DNA of 54,200 nucleotides, filler included, from Bipalium vagum (taxonomy: Eukaryota): NCBI GenBank assembly GCA_037834085.1. It is 3 parts of 3 records of this genome, joined end to end, with 100 filler letters (N's around TTAATTAATTAA, not from the genome) between each part and the next. Parts side by side here need not be neighbours in the genome. Positions count along the whole stretch, not along the records: positions 1 to 15,914 come from JBBMKC010138931.1; 2 more parts are not named here. The stretch is one strand, 5' to 3'. How positions within the stretch are numbered: position 1 is the stretch's first letter; each line of letters opens with the position of its first letter. Under the pieces are notes generated by a model. The model was not told the origin of the DNA. It saw only the letters and a program-made list of their open reading frames with translations, and searched no databases. Both the position numbers and the translations under genes were made by a program. Positions 2,900-52,052 of the stretch are shown piece after piece.

Positions 2900-3668
2900 T
2901 GTAGAAAAAGGCTTTCTCATATTGTGAAGTACGAATACAATTAAAACAAATGAATGAAAAAACCGGATCAATTTTCAAAAACGGGAAGTCCAGGATAAAA
3001 ATGTCAGACCACAAACTTAATTAAAATCCCGGTAAAAATCGAACTAGTTTGGCTTGGAATTAATAATGTATTTACCGCGCAGTCCTGATCTGCCAGTATT
3101 AGATTATCATTTATTTAGATATCTGCTGAACTCTCAGTGGGCTAAAATTGATTTCTATGCATTAATGAGGGGAATAATTTGTGCAGTTTTTTATTCTTCT
3201 TATTCTCCGAATCCTTCACCAATAGATTATTATCTGTTCAACCATGTTAGTTGAAAATTAATCGGAGATATCGGGATACGAACGAACAAAATTGTATTTT
3301 TTACAACAGATTTATACATACATGAACATAAGTCATCAGCTCATGGCCTTTCAGATACGAATGGGATGCTCTGACCACTAGACGACATCTCCCGATTAAT
3401 TTTCAATTTATCTTTAAAACCAAATTGATGCCTTTCTTATCAATACAATTTTTTCCATGACCAAGATGCCATTCAAAAAGACACGTCAATTTTTTGAATC
3501 AAGAAATCCGGAGTTTTTTCAAATTGAAATCGATAAATCATTAACTTATTTTCAACTGTGCTCTAACAGTAACGGAAAATATTTTAATTAATAAATTTTA
3601 TTTACCAGTTCTTTTATTACTGATATCACTTACAACTAAAACACGACATATCATACTGAACAACTTGG
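2900..3668 (+). mobile_element. Two tandem mariner C-terminal relics; the second is interrupted by a tRNA-derived insertion
   Basis: PRSPDLPVLDYHLFRYL, then YSPNPSPIDYYLFNH...IDAFL...FFESRNPEFF...NSNGKYFN, with a TIR-like end at ~3640-3668. Confidence 0.75.
3246..3407 (-). mobile_element. tRNA-Ala-derived element, copy 1 (inverted flanks, putative TSD, ~57-nt internal insert)
   Basis: Aligns with 34011-34082 (cggagatatcgggatacgaac / ggcctttcagatacgaatgggatgctctgaccactagacgacatctccc). TTGAAAATTAATCGG(G)AGAT inverted repeat. Direct repeats at 3230-3245 and 3408-3423. Confidence 0.75.
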
Positions 3669-9165: not shown

Positions 9166-9283
9166 CAAAAATCTATTAGGTGTAGAAAACCTCGATGTAT
9201 TGCCACTGGAAAATCAGTTACTTTATGGGCGGAAATCGAGGTGGTATTATTTCGAATACGATGTAACGAATAGCAACATTGCT

Positions 9284-9335
9284 ACCTTTCACATGCACAT
9301 GGACTGCTCTGACAGCTGAGATGGCTACATCTCCC
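9284..9335 (-). pseudogene. tRNA-Ala-derived element, copy 2 (5' portion only; T arm missing)
   Basis: acctttcacatgcacatggactgctct...gctgag...gctacatctccc is nearly identical to 34037-34083 over the anticodon and D region. Confidence 0.8.
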
Positions 9336-10350
9336 GACTAATAGCAACGTATTCACATTGCATCGGATTAACATTTGTTTGTTTTTGTTAAGAAAAAACA
9401 ATACTTTCTAAAGTACGGGACAATTTTTTTGATACATATTTTTCACCTTTTCCATCTTTTTAAAGTGAATTGTTTACTATTTCTTGGAAAATAGGGTTTA
9501 ATCAACATGAAATTGGTGTTCTATTTTCTTTCAAATGTTACAATTCATTTCAGAGAATATATTGAATTATTTCTGGGGGCAGGAATAAATTTTGGACAGA
9601 ATTTTTATTTTACTAAATATTGCTGAAAACAACCTAAAAGCTATTCCAGAAAACTGTTCCGTTTTTTGTAAATAGTCTTAGAAATTGCAAATTGTCAATT
9701 GCAGAAGTTTCAGGAACATTTAGAAACTAAAGAGAATTTTGGAAATCTGCTTTTTTGTAAGAATCATCACAGGAAACTTACATTGTCCTTTTATAACCCA
9801 GAATTGGTAGGTCGTAAGAATACGAGATAAAAAGAAAATAGACTCCTATGATAAACTGTGATTTCAAACCTAAGGTTGTAAAAAGGTTACAAACATGTAT
9901 TGGAGCCACCGCTGTCATCTTGTGTGATATCTGGACCCTAAAAGCTTTGATCAATGACCATTGTATTAACTGATTTCAGACTTCTGGTGATTGATATTTT
10001 AATTTATTTCAGACTTTTGATTGATAGTTCCGTTTAGAAAAAACCGTAACAATTTTTTTCGTGTACGTAAATTGATAAAAATCAATTAAGCCATTTTACA
10101 TCGCTGTGTACAATATTAATTGCATTTTTCAATCTTGTATTGTTCGTTTGGTCAGAACATATTTATATGAGCTTGGTTGAAGAGCACTTGTACGACCTAA
10201 AGGACTTTTTATACTGCAGAAAATATTCTGATCAATTGATTGTTGTTGTCTGATAGATTTATTTTTATTACACAATCCATGATAAATAATTTTTATTTAT
10301 TTATATTTTTAGTTTATTTTTTATTTCGGTAATTTAATATTATTTTTCAG

Positions 10351-12286: not shown

Positions 12287-12606
12287 TTAGGTGTAGGCAT
12301 AAGTTTTAGCCCATTTTTTAAAAAAATTAAATCTTGTTAAAAAGGTAATATTGATTTAAATGCATGGGATGCATTTTTGCCTTGATCAAATTTAAATCTT
12401 ATTTAACACCGAACGTACAATTTTTCATCACTCATTTTGAAGACTGATATTTTTGTTTTTATAAAATAACTTAAGTAGAAAATTAATATATTTATAAAAT
12501 TTAATATATTGATTACCAATGTAAAATATCGCGGCAGTTATTTGATAATATTTGGATTAGTAAAACAACAATGAAAGAATGGTTTAAAACTTATGCCTAC
12601 ATCTAA
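12287..12606. mobile_element. Mariner-derived MITE (320 bp)
   Basis: TA TSDs; ~29-bp TIRs TTAGGTGTAGGCATAAGTTTTAGCCCATT / AATGGTTTAAAACTTATGCCTACATCTAA; no transposase ORF. Confidence 0.9.
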
Positions 12607-12960: not shown

Positions 12961-14778
12961 AATTTCCATAATGAGGATGTAAAATAATTTTGAGTCCTTT
13001 ACAATCAGAAGATAAAAAGAAAAGAGACTCGCGTTAAAATAAATAATATTTACCCCTTATACAAGGAACAAGTATAAAAAAGTCCAATATATCCAAAAAG
13101 AGGAAAAGAATAATATTGATGCTGATAATAACAAAAGATAATTGTCTCATATTGATTGCCTGTGCTAGACAGATGTTTTCTTAAATCTATTAATAAATAA
13201 TAAGTCACTCTCATATCTATAATTAGGTACCGCCCTTGTATTTAATTTAATTAAATTCTATTCAAATCTCAATCACAAATAAAAAATAATTATTGATTGT
13301 GTAAATATAAGAGAAAGAGATCAATATTTACTTGAAAAACCCTTTCGTTATGCTCCCTTGTTTATTCCACAGGTCTCTTGCTTGAATCTTTGTAAAGATA
13401 ACTTCACGTTTTATTCTCAAAAACTGTCCTTCGCCGGAAACAACACTTAGACCATGTTCATTTCTCATACCTGTTTCATACCCATTCAATTTTCTGCTAA
13501 ATATATATCCAAAATATCGATTTTGTGAAAGTAGAACTCATTTATCTAAGATTCCAATTATTGTCGATCCGAAAACCTTCACAAAAATATAATTCTCATC
13601 AGAAAACACAAATAATTCTCAATTGGTAAAGATAGGCACAGCAAATGGGAATAATATTTGGTTTTACTTACCGCCTTTGGCGACATATACAGGGTGCTTC
13701 ATAATCAGCAGGCATTTTCTTTGCAATAATGCTTTTTTTAATCATGATAAACCTTGTCTCTCCATTACCCTTTAATACCAATCTTCTGTTCCTGTAAAGT
13801 TCTGATTTTTTCCTATCATTATCATTTTGGTAGAAACGCTTCTCCATGAATTTCCCTCAATTACCATCAACGTTTTTATGAAAACCTTAAATTCTGGCAA
13901 GTATGGGTCTGGAAAAAGAAAACTATGTGAAGCTATTCTTGTGCCTTTCGGTTAGTTTTCTTACTGCCGCGAGACATGTATCATATTTCCGTGGGTATTG
14001 GTTCGAAACCCCTTGATGTTGCTCCACTATCATTGTCTGTCTACCAGGTTTTAGTTTGTAGGAGATTGCATTGATCGATATTTTTCTTCGGGCTGCCATA
14101 AAGTTTTTAAAGGTCTCAAAAAGTAACAGCAAATCGATTGGAGAAAAATAAAAATTGAAAATTAGAATTTATTTGATTACGACATTCACAGAAATATGAA
14201 GAGTTGTTTAATGCTTTAGAGTCTCCACAAAACACACAATAACCGATAAGCAAGTCTTTTATCCTCACAAACTCTGTGAAGAGTGAGTGTTACCAAGAAG
14301 AAGAAGGATATGGAAGGTCTAATGATGAGATATAAAATCCCCAAACTTTTTCTTCATAACCAGAATTGATTTATGAGACCTGGTCACACCAATGGTGTAC
14401 TACATTAAAATAATACTGTATATTCACTGTTTGAACTGATCGGCGACAATGGAATTCGCTGTTAATCATTGTTACGATTTTAATATCCCAATGCATTGGT
14501 CCTTTAAAGTCCCTCCGAACAGACAATGGGGCTTTGTTTTGATAACAGTTTGATTTTCTAGACGGTAAAGCTTATCAAACTTTCCGGAATACATAATATT
14601 ATATATTGTTCATATTTATATCGATCTGGTGTATACCCATTGATTTTGATCTACCTGGTTCATTCTAATCGTTGTTTTATATTCATTTCTAAAGTCCTCT
14701 TCATTAAACCTGGACCTTTATCTTAGATTTAATCGTCTCATTTAAAACTAATGTGATATATAATAATTTTACTTTTAG

Positions 14779-15914: not shown

Positions 15915-16014
15915 NNNNNNNNNNNNNNNNNNNNNNNNNNNNNNNNNNNNNNNNNNNNTTAATTAATTAANNNNNNNNNNNNNNNNNNNNNNNNNNNNNN
16001 NNNNNNNNNNNNNN
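15915..16014. other. Artificial 100-bp assembly spacer
   Basis: N44 + TTAATTAATTAA (stop codons in all six frames) + N44. Confidence 0.95.
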
Positions 16015-25673: not shown

Positions 25674-26837
25674 ATCGCCCAAAATTATCAAATAGGATCT
25701 CAAATTAAATACGAACAGGAATTGACAAATAATCAGCCGCAAGCTCAACAACAACAAACAATGAACAATACACAGGTTCTGGACATATCAGACAATTCCA
25801 ATATCGAGGATAAAACCAAACGAAAGCCAAGGAGACGCATTCCTAACAAAGCTCCAGCAATTTCCAACTCAATATCGAATGATGGAGAGAATAATCCAGT
25901 CCAAAATCAGTCGAACAACCAAGAAGAACGTTTACTTGATCACAAAGGCCGACCATTTATTTACAATTGTCCAAACTGTCCCAAGAAGTTTACTCTCAAT
26001 TCCCGATTAACAGCACATCTTCGATGTCACACAGGAATCCGACCTTATACTTGCGTTCAATGTGGGTTTTCTTTTACACAGAAAAGTTATCTGATCAGGC
26101 ACGCTGCTGTTCATACGGAAGAACGACCTTTTACTTGCGAACGATGCTTGAAGACCTACAAACATTATGGATCTCTGGCCAATCACAGAAAATTGCATCG
26201 CAAGGAAGACAAAAGTGGTACTTCTGATATATCAGAATCGAATTGCCAGTCGGACCAAAAAGCGGTTTGCGACAACAACAATGTCGTGACAACCACCACA
26301 ATGGTTGATCAAACAAACCTTGACAATATTCTTCAACTGCATTCGGACTGGTCGACAGTTGCATCATCGATCAGTGACAACAGCACTTACCTCATCGCTA
26401 ATACGAAATCGGAAACGACTAATATCGCTTATTATTCCCAGTCTTCAACGGTCAATGTGTCACAAGTTTTATCCGGCAGCGGGCCCGTTGCCTTTCCCGA
26501 TCAACAACTGAACCACGGTCTGGAAAACGTAGTCTCTTCCAATCAACAAGCTTTAATGGAATGTGTCCAGAGTCAGACTTTCTGTGCCACAAACCAGTCG
26601 GAAATCAACAAATGCCATATCAAAAACAATCAGTCCATGTTCCTGGATCTGCAGCTGTTACCTTCATCGTCCACCCAAACTCATAACAACACGGATGCCA
26701 TCATCTACACTCACATTGAGGTAAATCGCGATCAACAGCAACAACAACAACAGCAACATCAGCAGCAACAACAACAACAACAGCAACAACAGCAGCAGCA
26801 GCAGACACACAAGTACAGCTCGACGTCCAACGTTTAG
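25674..26837 (+). CDS. C2H2 zinc-finger transcription factor (3 fingers, C-terminal polyQ); 5' end uncertain
   Basis: Three Cx2C-x12-Hx3H fingers with TGIRPY and TEERPF linkers, a basic NLS-like KRKPRRR, and a polyQ tail. Frame is open from acceptor ctttttcgtag| at 25674; first ATG at 25761; stop at 26835-26837. Confidence 0.9.
   Translation: MAQNYQIGSQIKYEQELTNNQPQAQQQQTMNNTQVLDISDNSNIEDKTKRKPRRRIPNKAPAISNSISNDGENNPVQNQSNNQEERLLDHKGRPFIYNCPNCPKKFTLNSRLTAHLRCHTGIRPYTCVQCGFSFTQKSYLIRHAAVHTEERPFTCERCLKTYKHYGSLANHRKLHRKEDKSGTSDISESNCQSDQKAVCDNNNVVTTTTMVDQTNLDNILQLHSDWSTVASSISDNSTYLIANTKSETTNIAYYSQSSTVNVSQVLSGSGPVAFPDQQLNHGLENVVSSNQQALMECVQSQTFCATNQSEINKCHIKNNQSMFLDLQLLPSSSTQTHNNTDAIIYTHIEVNRDQQQQQQQQHQQQQQQQQQQQQQQQTHKYSSTSNV
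26732..26804 (+). repeat. CAA/CAG polyglutamine repeat
   Basis: Q8-H-Q15 encoded by mixed CAA/CAG codons. Confidence 0.9.
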
Positions 26838-33265: not shown

Positions 33266-34010
33266 CTATAATAAAAATTGAAGTTAATTTAATAAAAAGA
33301 TTATTAAATATTATCTTTCAGAATATATTATGTTAATAATATTAACAATTATGTTAATAATAGTAATAATAGTAAAAAATTGATTTAGAATAATATATTT
33401 AATTTAAAAATAGAAAATTTCGAAAAAATGTTATTACTCATAAATGAAAATTTAACTTGTACTTAATTTAATAAATAAACATATTATTTAAGATAAACAT
33501 CGACATTTGTCATTTTCTTCACGAACATTTTGTCAATTATGAAAGAATCAATAAATTTTAAGAATTCCCAATTTATATTTATTGATAAAAATAGTACGAA
33601 TAGTGTTAGGAAAAGTATTAATAATATAAAATAATATTGAGAAAATGATAGGAAGTACTTTAAATACAATAAAGCAATCATAAAATATTTCTTTAGATAA
33701 AAATTCTTTCAATGAATTCCAATTATGGCTCAGTATTTCTCATTCATGTACTATTCAGCTGATATTTCTGACAATGCCTTTTTGAAAATGTTAAGATATT
33801 ATAATTTATTGATGTTGGATTGTAATTAGAATTTTAATGTTATTAAAACTAAATATTATTATATTAAATATTAATGTAATTTTTTAAAACAAATTGATTT
33901 ATGCAAAGTATATTTTTCTCTTTTATAAATGATCCAAAATTCATGGTTGTTTATATATATTTCAAATTTATCACTAAATAATTCAAATGACTTGTTAGGT
34001 TCAAATAAAT

Positions 34011-34082
34011 TGGAGACACCGGGATTCGAACCCGGGACCTTTCACATGCGCATGGACTGCTCTACCGCTGAGCTACGTCCCC
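34011..34082 (-). tRNA. tRNA-Ala-like gene (nominal anticodon CGC) with an aberrant anticodon arm; copy 3 of the tRNA-derived family
   Basis: GGGGACG-TA-GCTC-AGCGGTA-GAGC-A-GTCCA-TGCGCAT-GTGAA-AGGTC-CCGGG-TTCGAAT-CCCGG-TGTCTCC-A. Acceptor (G3:U70, A73), D and T arms and A/B boxes are intact; the anticodon stem pairs only 2/5 and position 33 is G. Confidence 0.8.
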
Positions 34083-35498
34083 CGTTCATTTGTCATCTAA
34101 ACTCCTTACATGACTAATTTCAATATTACACAAGCACTAAATAGTATTTATTTTTATTAAAAAAATTAAATATTAGAAATAATATTTTTCATTTTATAAA
34201 AATGACATTAATTTTTTTTTATTTTTACTTTTACATATTTCGAACTAATGACAAAAATGATAACATGAACCATTAATTTCAATATTAGTCAAACACAAAT
34301 TAATATTTTGTATTTTTTATTAGGAAAATAGTATCAATTCAAGATTCCAATTTAATGGAAAAGATTTTATTGACGAACTTGGAAACGGTGTTCTTAAACT
34401 ACGATGAAAGTGAGACACAAAATGTCAAGAAAATATTCTCTCACCAGCCAATGAAATACAGACAGCCACTGACCAATGGAAATTGCTGCCAAAATAATAG
34501 AAACAATCATGGCATTAGATTATTTGTCATAAAGAACCATTTTAGCATCATCTGTGCAGTGCTGTTTTATTATCAACATAATCATCATGATCACCATCAC
34601 CATCATCATCATCTTTACCATTATTACAACTATTAACAAGTGGCCAATAATTCAATGGATAAAATCAATACTACTATGGTGGTATGAAAAAATATCATTT
34701 CACTAAAGATATACATGAAAAATAATTATATTAGTAAACTGACGAAAATCTGATAATAATTCCACCAGTTATTCCATCGATGATACCGTTTATTGTGACA
34801 GTATATGTTCTGTCACTGATGATTGGTAAAATAAAATCAAATAACAACAGAAAAATCACAGAACTTAACCCAAAAATAAAATTGTGTAAATAATCAATTA
34901 ATTTTTTTAATAAATAATTGTTATAAAACGGGTATTGCGTCTCATTGTGATTTCAAATTAAAACATCAACTGAGAATTGGTCAATTGTTTATCATTTTAT
35001 TTTCATATAGTGAATTGTAATTGAAAGACCTTCATCTGTTGACAGAAAAACAAAATCATGTATAAAAAAGGAATGGAAAACTTTGTACTATTCAACTAAA
35101 AAACCAAACTTTATTCATTGATCTTTAATCAGTTAGCTGACAGAAATGCTGAGAGTGCAAATTGCTATCCCTGGAAACACATGTTAGAATGGCATCAACT
35201 TCCAACCAATAGTTGGATGTCTGGAATCAGTTACTTCGTCGGCTCATTTGTTACAATAAAGAACATTATGTCATTTTTATTGTTTTTTTTTACATTTTCC
35301 ATGAATAAAATAGAGAAAAATCATAATTTTTACTTAGGTAAAATTAATGGGTTTGCTAAAGAAAAAAATGTTTACTGCAAAAATATATTAGTATTTGTAA
35401 TATGAAATAGTTTAAAACTTTTAAATAAAAAATATAAAATAACATTATTATATTTTATCAATAATAGTTTTTTAAGAAAAACGAAAATGAATTCTTAC

Positions 35499-36956: not shown

Positions 36957-37056
36957 NNNNNNNNNNNNNNNNNNNNNNNNNNNNNNNNNNNNNNNNNNNN
37001 TTAATTAATTAANNNNNNNNNNNNNNNNNNNNNNNNNNNNNNNNNNNNNNNNNNNN
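36957..37056. other. Artificial 100-bp assembly spacer
   Basis: N44 + TTAATTAATTAA + N44, identical to 15915-16014. Confidence 0.95.
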
Positions 37057-43289: not shown

Positions 43290-44890
43290 AAGGCATGAGA
43301 TGTCTTAGAGATTTTAGGAGAGAAAATAAAATGAAAAAGCGCGCAAGTAAAATATTTTTGCATCGTATCCTAACTGGGAACAAAAGAAATAGATAGATTT
43401 CGATAATTCAAAGCGTAGAAATTGCTGGAGCGTCCCAGTTTAACCGTCATCATCGATTGTAAAACTCACTATTCGTGAGAAGGCATTGTTGGATCAGGCA
43501 TGGCAGGATCAGAAGAGTGTGCTTTACTAAGAGCCCTTACAACCTAGTCAAACAATTATTGGTGACTGTTATCAACAAAAACTGTTTAGTTTATGTTGTG
43601 CATTGAAGGAAACACGATCATTGTGAGCTGAAAGACATGAGAAATTAATTTTTTGTGCATGATAGCTCTCGGTGCCTGGTTTCAAAACCGGTAAAGGAAA
43701 CATTGAATATACTTGGTTCACTCACTCATCGTATTAGGTCGACACATAAGTAATGTCTTTTTTTTTGGAAAACTTTAAATAACAAAAGAAGTCGCAGATT
43801 AGATATATTAACTAAATACATAAGCACCATTGTCTTCTCCGATGTCATTCCATTTAAAAACTAATTTCATAAGGCCATCTTTATAAAAATTCTGTAGTTT
43901 GGAATCGAAGAAGTCTTGGATGGCTATATATTTCTAGCTTCATGGAAATCGTTTTTTTATCAAAAAATGTTACATTGCACGGAAAATATGGTAGTCAGAA
44001 GGCGCGATGTCAGGACTATAAGGAGGATGAGATAACAGTTCCCAGACGAAGTTCTTAATTTTCTGGAGCCTTTTCATGTTGAAGAATTACTCTATTTCTG
44101 TTGGTCAAAGCTGGCTGCTTCTTTTCAAGTTTTTTCTTCAATCTGTCTAACTAGGCACAATACACAACCGCTGTTATCGTTTTAACTGGTTGCAACTGCT
44201 CATAATGAAAAACACCTCTAGTGGACAACGAAACATTTAATAATACCTTTTCCCCATGAATATTTGGTTTTGCGGTGACTGCAGGTTTTTTTCCACATTA
44301 GAGCCATTGACTTTTACGACTAGAGTTGTCGTACATAACCCATTTCTGAAAAACCATCTCTGGCAATTTCTGATAGTAACCTCTGCTGTCGTTTTATCAT
44401 ATCGAAATTCATATAGCATACAATGGTGTATATGATTTTCAATTGGTATTTTCTCTGCAATTTCTACAGATTTAATGCATATCATCAAATTATTCAGAAA
44501 AATATTAAAACATTAAACTTCGTAAATTCACCCCCAAAAATATTAATTTGATATATTTAAACAAGTTACTTATTGATTGAATATTAATTATTAAAAAACG
44601 ACAATACTTATTTGTCGACCTAATATTCACCAGACATTGTTCAATCTGATTATTACTTGCTTGGATCGACGATGCATATTATCTTTGGACATTGCTTCCA
44701 CATCTTCAAGCATGTCAAGAAATTGATTGATCAGTAGATCTTATTGAAACAAGAAAACCTTTTGAAGCCATTTACAAACTACAACATAAATAGGCAACAG
44801 TTGTAAAATGTAATGGAAATTAATTTGAATAATAAATTTTGTTGAAATAAACATTTTGCACTCTGAAAAAGTCATTTGCAACTTGTACAC
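43290..44890 (+). mobile_element. Mos1-like mariner relic, split by a nested insertion
   Basis: FLHRILTG...DNSKRR...HDSSRCLVSKPVKETL...THR-Y | YSPDIVQSDYYLL...VVKCNGN*FE. Confidence 0.75.
43734..44623 (-). mobile_element. Internally deleted mariner (890 bp) with intact TIRs
   Basis: TA TSDs; TTAGGTCGACACATAAGTAATGTC / GACAATACTTATTTGTCGACCTAA. Minus strand HIHHCMLYEFR and HPPYSPDIAPSDYH. Confidence 0.9.
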
Positions 44891-48273: not shown

Positions 48274-49578
48274 TTAGGTTGGTACATAAGTTCCCGTGTT
48301 TTGTATTGAAAATTTTTTTGTGAAAACCAACTATTATTTTATTAATATTACAAATTATAAATCAATCAGTAATATAGTCTCCGTTATTGTTCACGACCTG
48401 CTCCCAGCTCTAGACCAATATGTTGATATCATTTCTCCAGAAATCGCCAGTTCGGGTCTCGAAGAATCTGTTGAGTCATTTTTGAGATCGTTCTTGAATG
48501 TCACACCCCTCATTTGATTGGATAATGAGCGGTAGAGGTGAAAGTCAGTTGGCGCATGGTCAGGAGAGTACGGCGGATGTTGAAGAATCTCCCATTTGAG
48601 CTCTGGGAGGGCTATTTTGACTATATTCGCTGTGTGTGCCGTGCGTTTTCATGAAGCAAAATGACATGACTGCGACAATCGGAACTTTTCAACTGGATAG
48701 CTTCGTTCATTCTTTGCAACTGTGGTTCTTTGTTAATAGTCTTATTTTTTCAAGTATTTCCCTGTGCACTAAGCCCTCCCAGTTCAACGATAAACATATC
48801 ATTGTTTTCTTGGGATGAAGTTCTTTTTTTACACTTGGATTAGGCGTGACTCCTTTAGTTATCCACTCTTTCCTCTGTCTCATATTGATGTAGAGACACC
48901 ATTTCTTGTCTCCCGTGACGATTCTCTGCAGAAATCGTTCCGTGTGGCCGCATGTCACTCAGTGCCGAGCAAGATGTTGTGCTGCAATTTGGAGACGATT
49001 TTCTTTGTCTTGGTCGCTGAGCTTATGAGGTATCCAAGCTCCAAATTTTTGTTCAAAGCCGATCGAATGAAAACATCTGAGGATTGTCGGATGAGTGCAG
49101 CCAATTTTTCAGCAAGTTCTCTGGATGTTTGGCGACCATTCTCCTTTAAAATCTCCTGAAGACGTTTTTCGTCGAATTCTGATGGTCGACCAGAACAAAA
49201 TTTATCTTCGAGATCAAACTTACCCTTTTTGAATTTGTTGTACCATTCTTGAACGGTCCTTGTACCAATTGCATTAGTGTCATAGACAGCAAAAATGTCT
49301 CGTGCTACTTCTGTAGCTTTCTGACCACGGCAAAAGACAAAATATAATAAATGCCGAAAATTATTTTTTCGCTGCTTGGAATATCCATTTGTAGATCTAG
49401 AAAAATGTATAATTAAGTATAATGTAAATGTATTATGCATAATTGAATGAATAATGATTACATGCTTGTAGCTTAAAAAAGCGCTTGCAAAATAATTACT
49501 TTTGCTCAGCAAAACAAAGCTGAAAATAGCAAGAATGACAAATTAAAAAAAAACGTGGGAACTTATGTATCAAGATAA
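48274..49578 (-). mobile_element. Full-length (1305 bp) mariner with a frameshifted transposase
   Basis: TA TSDs; TIRs TTAGGTTGGTACATAAGTTCCCGTG / CGTGGGAACTTATGTATCAAGATAA. HTH FRHLLYF..GQKATEVAR, SGRPSEFDE, IVTGDKKW, HPKKTM, HENARHT, HPPYSPDHAPTDFH. Confidence 0.95.
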
Positions 49579-50602: not shown

Positions 50603-50909
50603 TTCCTTCAATTTATGAATTATTTCTTTGATTTCAATTTTGCTTTCCAGTGTACCCCAAAAGCACAAGACTGACAAAGGGAAAGGGTTTCATTTTGGAT
50701 ATTCATAAGAATGTCATTGTTGTTTCTGCCATTCCAATGATTGATGAAGGAAGCTTCTCGGAATTCCGAAAAATATGCTCAACCTATGCCCTGCCGAAAG
50801 TGGCTGCTGCAGCTCTCATTGGCCTTCGTGGTCATTGGCCAATTGATCAGTGACCTTAGATATTTCTGTAAAACTGCTTTGTTGAAAAGCAAGTATCATT
50901 TTAGAAATA

Positions 50910-52052
50910 ATGAATTGTTCATTGTCTATTTATGATGACAATAATGGTATACGAATTTTTTCCATTTTCTTTTATTCAATGCTCATCGTTGTTGGGACAT
51001 TCGGAAATATTGTCGCCGTTTTGGTGATACGAATTACCAAGAGCAAAGGAAATTCTCGAAACGTTTTCACAGCACTGGCAGCTGCCGACACGTTAACATT
51101 GTGGATCAACCCTATAAGGTATTGGATACTTCACGTTTTCAATTATGAAATTCGAACGTATACCAATGGAATGTGCAAATTTCACACCTTTGTCAGCTAT
51201 TCCTCAAGAGATATAGCCTCATGGATTTTGTGTCTGTTGACCTTTGAACGGTTTATTGCAGCTTTCGATCCGTATGAATCGAAAATCATATGGAGAGGAT
51301 ATAAAAAATATTTAACGTGGTTCATTATCATTGTGATATTGTTGGCAAAGAACTGTTCAGTCATATGGCATTTGGAGATAATATCTTCATATACACAATT
51401 GTGTTTGTGTGATACCCCTGACATATCATTCAGACATCGATTTTTTTATTTCGACATCATTGTATATAGCATTTTTCCATCGGTTCTCTTATTAATTTTC
51501 AATTTGGGCATTTTAAGAGCTTTGAAAAAAGCAAAGGTTCTTCGACTTGAAGCCTGTCAAGTCAATCAAAAGTCCCACTTATTTAAACAGGATTCCATTT
51601 GGAGGTATCGTTCAACGATCGAAGGTTACAAAGTACGGAAATGTCCCAACAAAAAAATGTCAAACCTTGCCAACCGTCTGTTAATTCCAGTGACCATTTT
51701 CCATTTGGTCACATCATTGCCGTTGTGTATATTTTCCATTTTAGAGGCCAATTTGGAATGGAAAAATAATAAAGATCGCATTTTCGTCCTTTCCATTCTC
51801 AACACGGGATCGCTTTTCGTCATGTTGACTTCGTGCAATAACGGAGTCAATTTCATTCTTTACTTTCTCAGTTCCGTGACATTTCGAAGGCATTCTAAGT
51901 TGGTCCTATTTAAATGGCTGAAATGTTGCGGCATTGTTACTTCTTCAGACAGAAATAGTAATGAATTCTTCAATAGTACACTGGTGTATCAAAGGTCACG
52001 GAACATCACCTGTAAGCATTCGACAAATGATGAACTGGAAACGAAATGTTAA
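50910..52052 (+). CDS. Intronless class A (rhodopsin-like) GPCR, FMRFamide/peptide-receptor-like orphan
   Basis: Seven hydrophobic segments; GN in TM1, LAAAD in TM2, CK at the top of TM3, ERF (DRY variant), P in TM5 and TM6, NNGVNFILY (NPxxY variant), FR helix 8 followed by CC; N-glycosylation site NCS. AATAAA at 52148. Confidence 0.93.
   Translation: MNCSLSIYDDNNGIRIFSIFFYSMLIVVGTFGNIVAVLVIRITKSKGNSRNVFTALAAADTLTLWINPIRYWILHVFNYEIRTYTNGMCKFHTFVSYSSRDIASWILCLLTFERFIAAFDPYESKIIWRGYKKYLTWFIIIVILLAKNCSVIWHLEIISSYTQLCLCDTPDISFRHRFFYFDIIVYSIFPSVLLLIFNLGILRALKKAKVLRLEACQVNQKSHLFKQDSIWRYRSTIEGYKVRKCPNKKMSNLANRLLIPVTIFHLVTSLPLCIFSILEANLEWKNNKDRIFVLSILNTGSLFVMLTSCNNGVNFILYFLSSVTFRRHSKLVLFKWLKCCGIVTSSDRNSNEFFNSTLVYQRSRNITCKHSTNDELETKC

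Follow-up and report, generated by a model that had tools for sequence, protein, structure and literature searches.

A tRNA-like unit that interrupts a mariner relic of Bipalium vagum (assembly GCA_037834085.1) is probably the solo LTR of a Helenus/TRIMp3-like TRIM, with a Pol III promoter derived from a tRNA-Ala(CGC), which would have moved by LTR retrotransposition with a borrowed integrase before its two LTRs recombined. The shortness of the unit, its TG...CA ends, its 4-5-bp duplication and its tRNA-type promoter together give it the appearance of a solo LTR of a tRNA-bearing TRIM. All coordinates refer to a window of 54,200 nucleotides composed of three parts of three records joined end to end. 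The two joins (15915-16014 and 36957-37056) are filler made of 44 N, 12 letters and 44 N, with the same central AT palindrome in both, and are not genome sequence. The window is AT-rich animal DNA that contains many mariner relics as well as coding pieces for a desaturase, a zinc-finger protein, a Src-family kinase and a GPCR. The sole match of the kinase exon, out of 117 candidates, was a Dendrocoelum lacteum protein (78%).

The unit interrupts a single mariner copy

The initial annotation described a mariner reading frame interrupted by a tRNA-like insert, and proposed that removal of the insert plus one copy of its flanking direct repeat restores the mariner. Both descriptions were borne out. 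The matches of the two flanks to mariner transposase are weak but consistent on the left and on the right (Table 1), and the last codon of the left flank and the Q encoded at 3421 land on one residue, H171 of SETMAR, which corresponds to profile position 292. Once 178 bp are taken out, 55 residues remain after the H-equivalent, a number equal to that of SETMAR. Since both flanks lead to the same transposase residue and the length is restored, we infer that the unit broke up a single copy of mariner. This sequence evidence supports the earlier proposal that the unit is a mobile insertion younger than the mariner copy that it entered.

A by-eye comparison with SETMAR favours the reading register adopted at the junction in the initial annotation. 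When eight fetched mariners of another type were used instead, the L*NQI stretch locally read as mariner (scores of 6-15 vs 1-3); counting it as transposase leaves 59 residues downstream versus 56 in these eight mariners, an excess of 3-4 residues. One search for mariners more closely related to the relic returned none, while another returned three long proteins with matches over short stretches.

A separate C-terminal relic (relic A) lies in frame with the interrupted one (relic B), which places two YSPD-like motifs 123 bp apart. The possibility that relic A belongs with the right flank was rejected, the two having 16/42 identical nucleotides at overlapping positions.

Table 1. Positions of the solo-LTR-like unit, its parts, its sister copies and the adjoining mariner relics in the window.
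Feature	Position	Strand	Remarks
Mariner C-terminal relic A, separate, directly upstream of relic B	2985..3160	+	32/60 nt identical to relic B, in codon register
Mariner relic B, left of the insertion (YSP..P.DY motif)	3162..3244	+	Profile positions 276-292, E 1.9e-4 among 12 frames
Mariner relic B, right of the insertion to the stop codon	3423..3591	+	Profile positions 313-345, E 1.4e-4; SETMAR 191-226, E 0.21
TSD of c3, left copy, AACCA	3240..3244	+	Exact match to 3418-3422; ACCA, 3241-3244, if 4 bp
Solo-LTR-like unit c3, 174 bp with a 4-bp TSD	3245..3418	-	Homology to c34 ends; 3245-3417 if the TSD is 5 bp
c3 trailer, 18 nt, T-rich, T4 run, ACA end	3245..3262	-	14/18 identical to the c34 trailer
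c3 tRNA-like 3' part (B box, T-stem 3' strand, acceptor 3' strand, discriminator)	3263..3283	-	17/21 identical to c34
c3 non-tRNA stretch, 63 nt (57-nt secondary insert plus decayed T-stem 5' strand)	3284..3346	-	Absent from c34
c3 tRNA-Ala-like body, nt 1-46	3347..3392	-	Acceptor 5' strand, decayed A box, D arm, broken anticodon arm
c3 leader, 26 nt	3393..3418	-	Aligned to the 28-nt leader of c34, p 0.001
TSD of c3, right copy, AACCA	3418..3422	+	Exact match to 3240-3244; ACCA, 3419-3422, if 4 bp
Copy c9, 101 bp, TG...ACA; 28-nt leader, tRNA nt 1-47 only	9262..9362	-	Flanks 3/5; boundaries less certain
TSD of c34, TGACT	33988..33992 (left), 34111-34115 (right)	+	5/5; 4-bp and 6-bp options give 0 matches
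Copy c34, 118 bp, TGT...ACA; 28-nt leader, intact tRNA-Ala(CGC)-like body (34011-34082), 18-nt trailer	33993..34110	-	

Sister copies set the ends of the unit

The tRNA-like family has three copies in the window, c3 within the mariner relic, c34 and c9, all on the minus strand. The best preserved is c34, the ends of which show an inverted match at 6/7 positions and in which both the A and B boxes are intact. An ACA end followed by an exact 5-mer within 15 offsets has a chance of about 0.001, and a scan of the whole window for such units of 80-400 bp gave two matches, c34 itself and 26656-26791, which ends in a glutamine-codon repeat. ARAGORN and Rfam both call c34, which forms an intact cloverleaf, a tRNA (48 bits in Rfam); it keeps the G3:U70 pair and is identical by eye to S. 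mediterranea tRNA-Ala-CGC_5, as given in the available part of PMC7962491, at 60/72 positions. The anticodon stem is broken alike in 3/3 copies, and ARAGORN was unable to assign it; we conclude that the three copies represent a repeat family and not a set of tRNA genes. A covariation test on two copies was uninformative in that 253/500 shuffles scored as high.

In c9, the distance from the initial TG to the tRNA body is exactly 28 nt, and the copy ends with TTACA. An alternative reading places it as an insertion into a palindrome with an 11/12 direct repeat (p 0.014). The leader and 3' part of c9 (9255-9370) are inverted relative to each other over ~30 bp, unlike the arms of c3 and c34, and this inversion runs a few bases into the flanks. 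In both c3 and c9 the tRNA sequence breaks off within the variable loop, at nt 46-47 (3346 and 9285), which may reflect a fragile point or chance.

Because c34 displays TGT...ACA ends beside an exact 5-bp TSD, we set the ends of c3 at 3245 and 3418, where the flanks are exactly AACCA or ACCA. With boundaries picked after viewing the sequence and n=3 copies, a short TSD is exact at 2/3 copies (5 bp at c34, 4 or 5 bp at c3) and matches at 3/5 positions at c9. Scans with the family pattern gave 0 matches in metagenome, viral contig and bacterial and archaeal genome collections, which hold little flatworm DNA and are uninformative on the family.

The direct and inverted repeats of c3 reinterpreted

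A new count of the direct repeat reported at c3 (3230-3245 and 3408-3423) again gave 12/16 matches at an offset of 178. Its best form, 12/15 (3230-3244 and 3408-3422), has a chance of 0.003 when anchored at the element end and of 0.014-0.09 under freer searches. All three mismatches of the 15-bp form lie outside its last 5 bp, and T3245 is a base of the element and not of the duplication. The repeat had been taken for a long TSD left by target-primed retrotransposition (TPRT), a reading that was not upheld: the ends of c34, carried over to c3, leave a perfect 4-5-bp TSD, and the remainder of the repeat is element sequence. That the mismatches fall in element sequence explains how perfect arms can lie beside a supposed TSD that has diverged by 20-25%.

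A ~20-bp inverted repeat had also been reported. Its pairing is present, as a perfect 13-bp match (3251-3263 and 3394-3406), one bulged G and then the 7-bp acceptor stem of the tRNA, which contributes 7 of the 20 inverted base pairs, but its arms do not stand at the ends of the element. They had been likened to the ends of a MITE, whereas homology to c34 puts the true ends at TGT...ACA, outside the inverted arms. The combination that had seemed unusual, a TPRT-like TSD with MITE-like ends, would then come down to a solo LTR built around a tRNA-like core; the unit does not constitute a new hybrid between retroposition and MITE transposition. The fold of c3 reaches -49.4 kcal/mol (z -6.1), a value equalled by none of 200 shuffles.

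In c3, the ACA at the 3' end is intact and the TGT at the 5' end is decayed. The leader of c3 holds the outer inverted arm (3394-3406) together with the stretch that had been assigned to the TSD, and the outer 8 nt match those of c34 at 6/8 positions (chance 0.005). In the body, A3:U70 replaces G3:U70 and the B box is kept. The similarity between the two trailers was equalled in 0 of about 20,000 random draws, and the other inverted arm (3251-3263) consists of the inner 12 nt of the c3 trailer together with the discriminator. An Rfam search did not detect c3, even at E up to 10.

The further insert of ~57 nt in the T arm of c3 is as had been described, and extends to 63 nt if one includes the T-stem 5' strand, which is decayed. 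The window holds no second copy of it. Two readings of it were rejected, namely that it copies the D arm in inverted orientation (p 0.27-0.91) and that it forms a significant hairpin (47% of shuffles were as good).

A probable solo LTR and its rivals

By analogy with the known class, a full-length element would consist of two such LTRs around a short spacer with a PBS and a PPT. Pol III would transcribe it from the 5' LTR, a host tRNA would prime reverse transcription by the enzymes of an autonomous LTR retrotransposon, and the integrase of that partner would insert the copy, with a short TSD as the outcome. Recombination between the two LTRs would then leave a single one; c3 later received the ~57-nt insertion. 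The 13-bp arms are a pairing between leader and trailer that extends the acceptor stem; as a guess, this long stem and the broken anticodon arm could protect the element RNA from cleavage or charging as a pre-tRNA. Such a mechanism would work like that of Helenus. The unit is a candidate member of Helenus, since no two-LTR copy with a PBS and a PPT was found in the window. Beside the three window copies there is no partner LTR, internal PBS or purine tract (8/15 purines upstream of each copy), and the TGG after c3 belongs to the TSD inside mariner sequence and not to a PBS.

Several observations run against the solo-LTR reading. The 5' end of c3 needs one substitution or deletion in its terminal dinucleotide, the flanks of c9 match at only 3/5 positions, and the TSD of c34 is 5 bp long as opposed to 4 bp in animal Helenus. 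Outside its 5-bp core, moreover, the c3 repeat still matches at 7/10 positions (chance 0.024). This residual similarity, the low chance of the anchored 12/15 repeat and the 11/12 repeat at c9 would be expected from a tRNA-derived SINE or a retrocopy of an unprocessed pre-tRNA, moved by a LINE through TPRT with TSDs of 15 bp at c3, 8-14 bp at c34 and 12-18 bp at a 3'-truncated c9. The stop of c9 in the variable loop also recalls tailless retropseudogenes, which, according to the available part of PMC5322556, may keep tRNA precursor sequence and have TSDs of 8-30 nt; further TPRT precedents appear in the accessible text of PMC6007223. A Dugesia preprint (10.64898/2025.12.11.693146) reports, in its available part, that RTE LINEs are expanded in this planarian and that >90% of its LTR elements are Gypsy. 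We nevertheless regard TPRT as unlikely, given that it accounts neither for the TGT...ACA termini and exact 5-bp duplication of c34 nor for the likeness of the supposed TSD of c3 to the c34 leader. A long TSD at c34 reaches only 8/14 matches (chance 0.34) despite a nearly intact core, c3 and c34 end not in an A-rich or simple-repeat tail but in a common 18-nt trailer closing with ACA, and the window has no convincing reverse-transcriptase motif.

Transposition by a DDE transposase, in the form of a MITE that captured a tRNA gene, also appears improbable, whether its shell is of the Ginger type (TGT ends, 4-5-bp TSD) or made of mariner terminal repeats. In its favour, the copies are hairpins, a scan of the window for internal parts of an LTR element gave none, and the arms are similar to terminal repeats in two window mariners (best p 0.0006 in 20 post hoc comparisons), a likeness that we take as chance similarity of short ends or as an old borrowing. 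A mariner MITE needs a TA duplication at both ends, yet TA occurs at 0/4 flanks of c3 and c34, and a TA-type Tc1/mariner MITE was rejected on this ground. The ends of the unit do fit TGTNR, a motif that the consulted part of PMC2836005 gives as common to Ginger and Gypsy; however, the true terminal inverted match of c34 covers 6/7 nt, compared with 40-270 bp in Ginger1 and about 50-180 bp in Ginger2, and the targets TGACT and AACCA fit neither CCGG/CCGT nor RTATAY (PMC2836005). The kept A and B boxes point instead to an RNA step. A Mutator/Phantom MITE was likewise rejected, since the 7/8 repeat at c34 that would suggest it includes the element's own ACA and the true TSD is 5 bp; MULE TSDs measure 8-11 bp in the portion of PMC6446971 at hand. 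Finally, c34 could be a divergent host tRNA-Ala gene, in line with its Rfam score and its G3:U70 pair, with c3 and c9 as old pseudogenes moved by duplication or repair and the common ends as a coincidence. We give this very little credence: the three copies share an identically broken anticodon stem that ARAGORN was unable to assign, c3 sits within a coding relic beside an exact short duplication, and the arm motif is not in the consulted supplementary tables that hold 457 S. mediterranea tRNAs (PMC7962491).

Relationship to Helenus and other known elements

The solo-LTR reading finds its closest counterpart in Helenus, a kind of tRNA-bearing TRIM described in 2024 (PMC10886601), of which the following account reflects the accessible part of that report. 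An LTR integrase leaves TG...CA ends and a 4-5-bp duplication as its footprint. By eye, Helenus LTRs, such as a 120-bp one from Selaginella and a 128-bp one from oyster, are laid out as TGT, a short leader, a tRNA-like body, a T-rich trailer and ACA. Those of animals measure 104-323 bp, solo LTRs with TSDs are described, and the anticodon stem is broken while the promoter boxes are kept; Pol III transcription was not validated for Helenus itself. The window unit is similarly short and bounded by TGT...ACA, has a sense tRNA-like body behind a short leader and before a T-rich trailer, keeps A and B boxes in a non-functional tRNA fold, has a short TSD and falls within the 104-323-bp range.

There are also differences from Helenus. 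In animals, its TSD is 4 bp in all animal rows of Table S1 that give a value, whereas c34 matches at 5/5 positions for 5 bp and at 0/4 for 4 bp; c3 fits either length. TSDs of 5 bp are found in fungal and plant Helenus and in the nemertean Ajax (PMC10886601). The host here is a triclad flatworm, and Platyhelminthes are not in Table 1 of the 2024 report, a search of its consulted supplement giving 0 matches. Unlike Helenus, c3 has a perfect 13-bp extension of the acceptor stem, and the window family is known from single-LTR-like copies only. The closeness of the body to a flatworm tRNA-Ala(CGC) suggests a separate origin.

With Cassandra and Ajax, which are TRIMs bearing 5S rRNA (PMC10886601, in part), the unit shares a Pol III promoter of a small-RNA gene inside the LTR, and with Ajax a 5-bp TSD in an animal; its promoter is of the tRNA type, with A and B boxes, and not of the 5S type. 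TGTNR ends and a 4-5-bp TSD are common to the unit and to Ginger1 and Ginger2/Tdd, but Ginger elements have terminal inverted repeats of 40-270 bp and specific targets, neither of which is seen in the unit, and the available text of PMC2836005 describes no tRNA core for them. SINEs and tailless retropseudogenes (PMC5322556; Sm-alpha of schistosomes, PMC2770079; HaSE2, PMC3272025) resemble the unit in being dispersed repeats of tRNA origin that carry a Pol III promoter internally; they differ from it in the accounts consulted by their TPRT, their variable TSDs of 8-30 bp and their lack of fixed TG...CA ends.

The novelty therefore appears to lie in the host group and not in the mechanism. Relative to the consulted part of the 2024 paper, what is new is a flatworm host outside its host list and a 5-bp TSD in an animal; later flatworm reports may exist. 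If confirmed, tRNA-bearing TRIMs would reach a seventh animal phylum relative to that list, and the 5-bp TSD would show that not every animal family depends on a single kind of Gypsy partner. Solo LTRs of this kind also get called as tRNA genes, as c34 does by passing both ARAGORN and Rfam. Predictions in S. mediterranea are inflated, with about 4,100 predicted loci versus 1,372 kept according to the part of PMC7962491 available. A more elaborate scenario is conceivable, although we hold it as tentative and somewhat doubtful: the family would be a flatworm lineage of Pol III-driven TRIMs that arose independently from a host tRNA-Ala(CGC), with a partner that makes 5-bp duplications and a leader-trailer stem in the LTR RNA that shields it from RNase P and RNase Z, and, at three copies in 54 kb, it would be abundant enough to inflate the tRNA gene counts of this planarian.

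Other features of the window

Three further units with TA flanks were observed. A near full-length mariner occupies 48274-49578; part of its C-terminal piece shows up to 89% identity to public transposases, and Necator americanus proteins match at 71-80%. An internally deleted mariner of 890 bp (43734-44623) has terminal repeats that are identical at 27/30 positions, and the 320-bp unit at 12287-12606, with near-perfect terminal inverted repeats, is probably a mariner-type MITE. The motif scan of the window gave a single weak integrase-like match at 14519 on the plus strand, possibly a relic of an LTR element or of a DDE element. A long hairpin at 800-884 has weak matches to microRNA precursors, far below the gathering scores, and an intronless reading frame of 388 residues for a rhodopsin-family GPCR spans 50886-52052.
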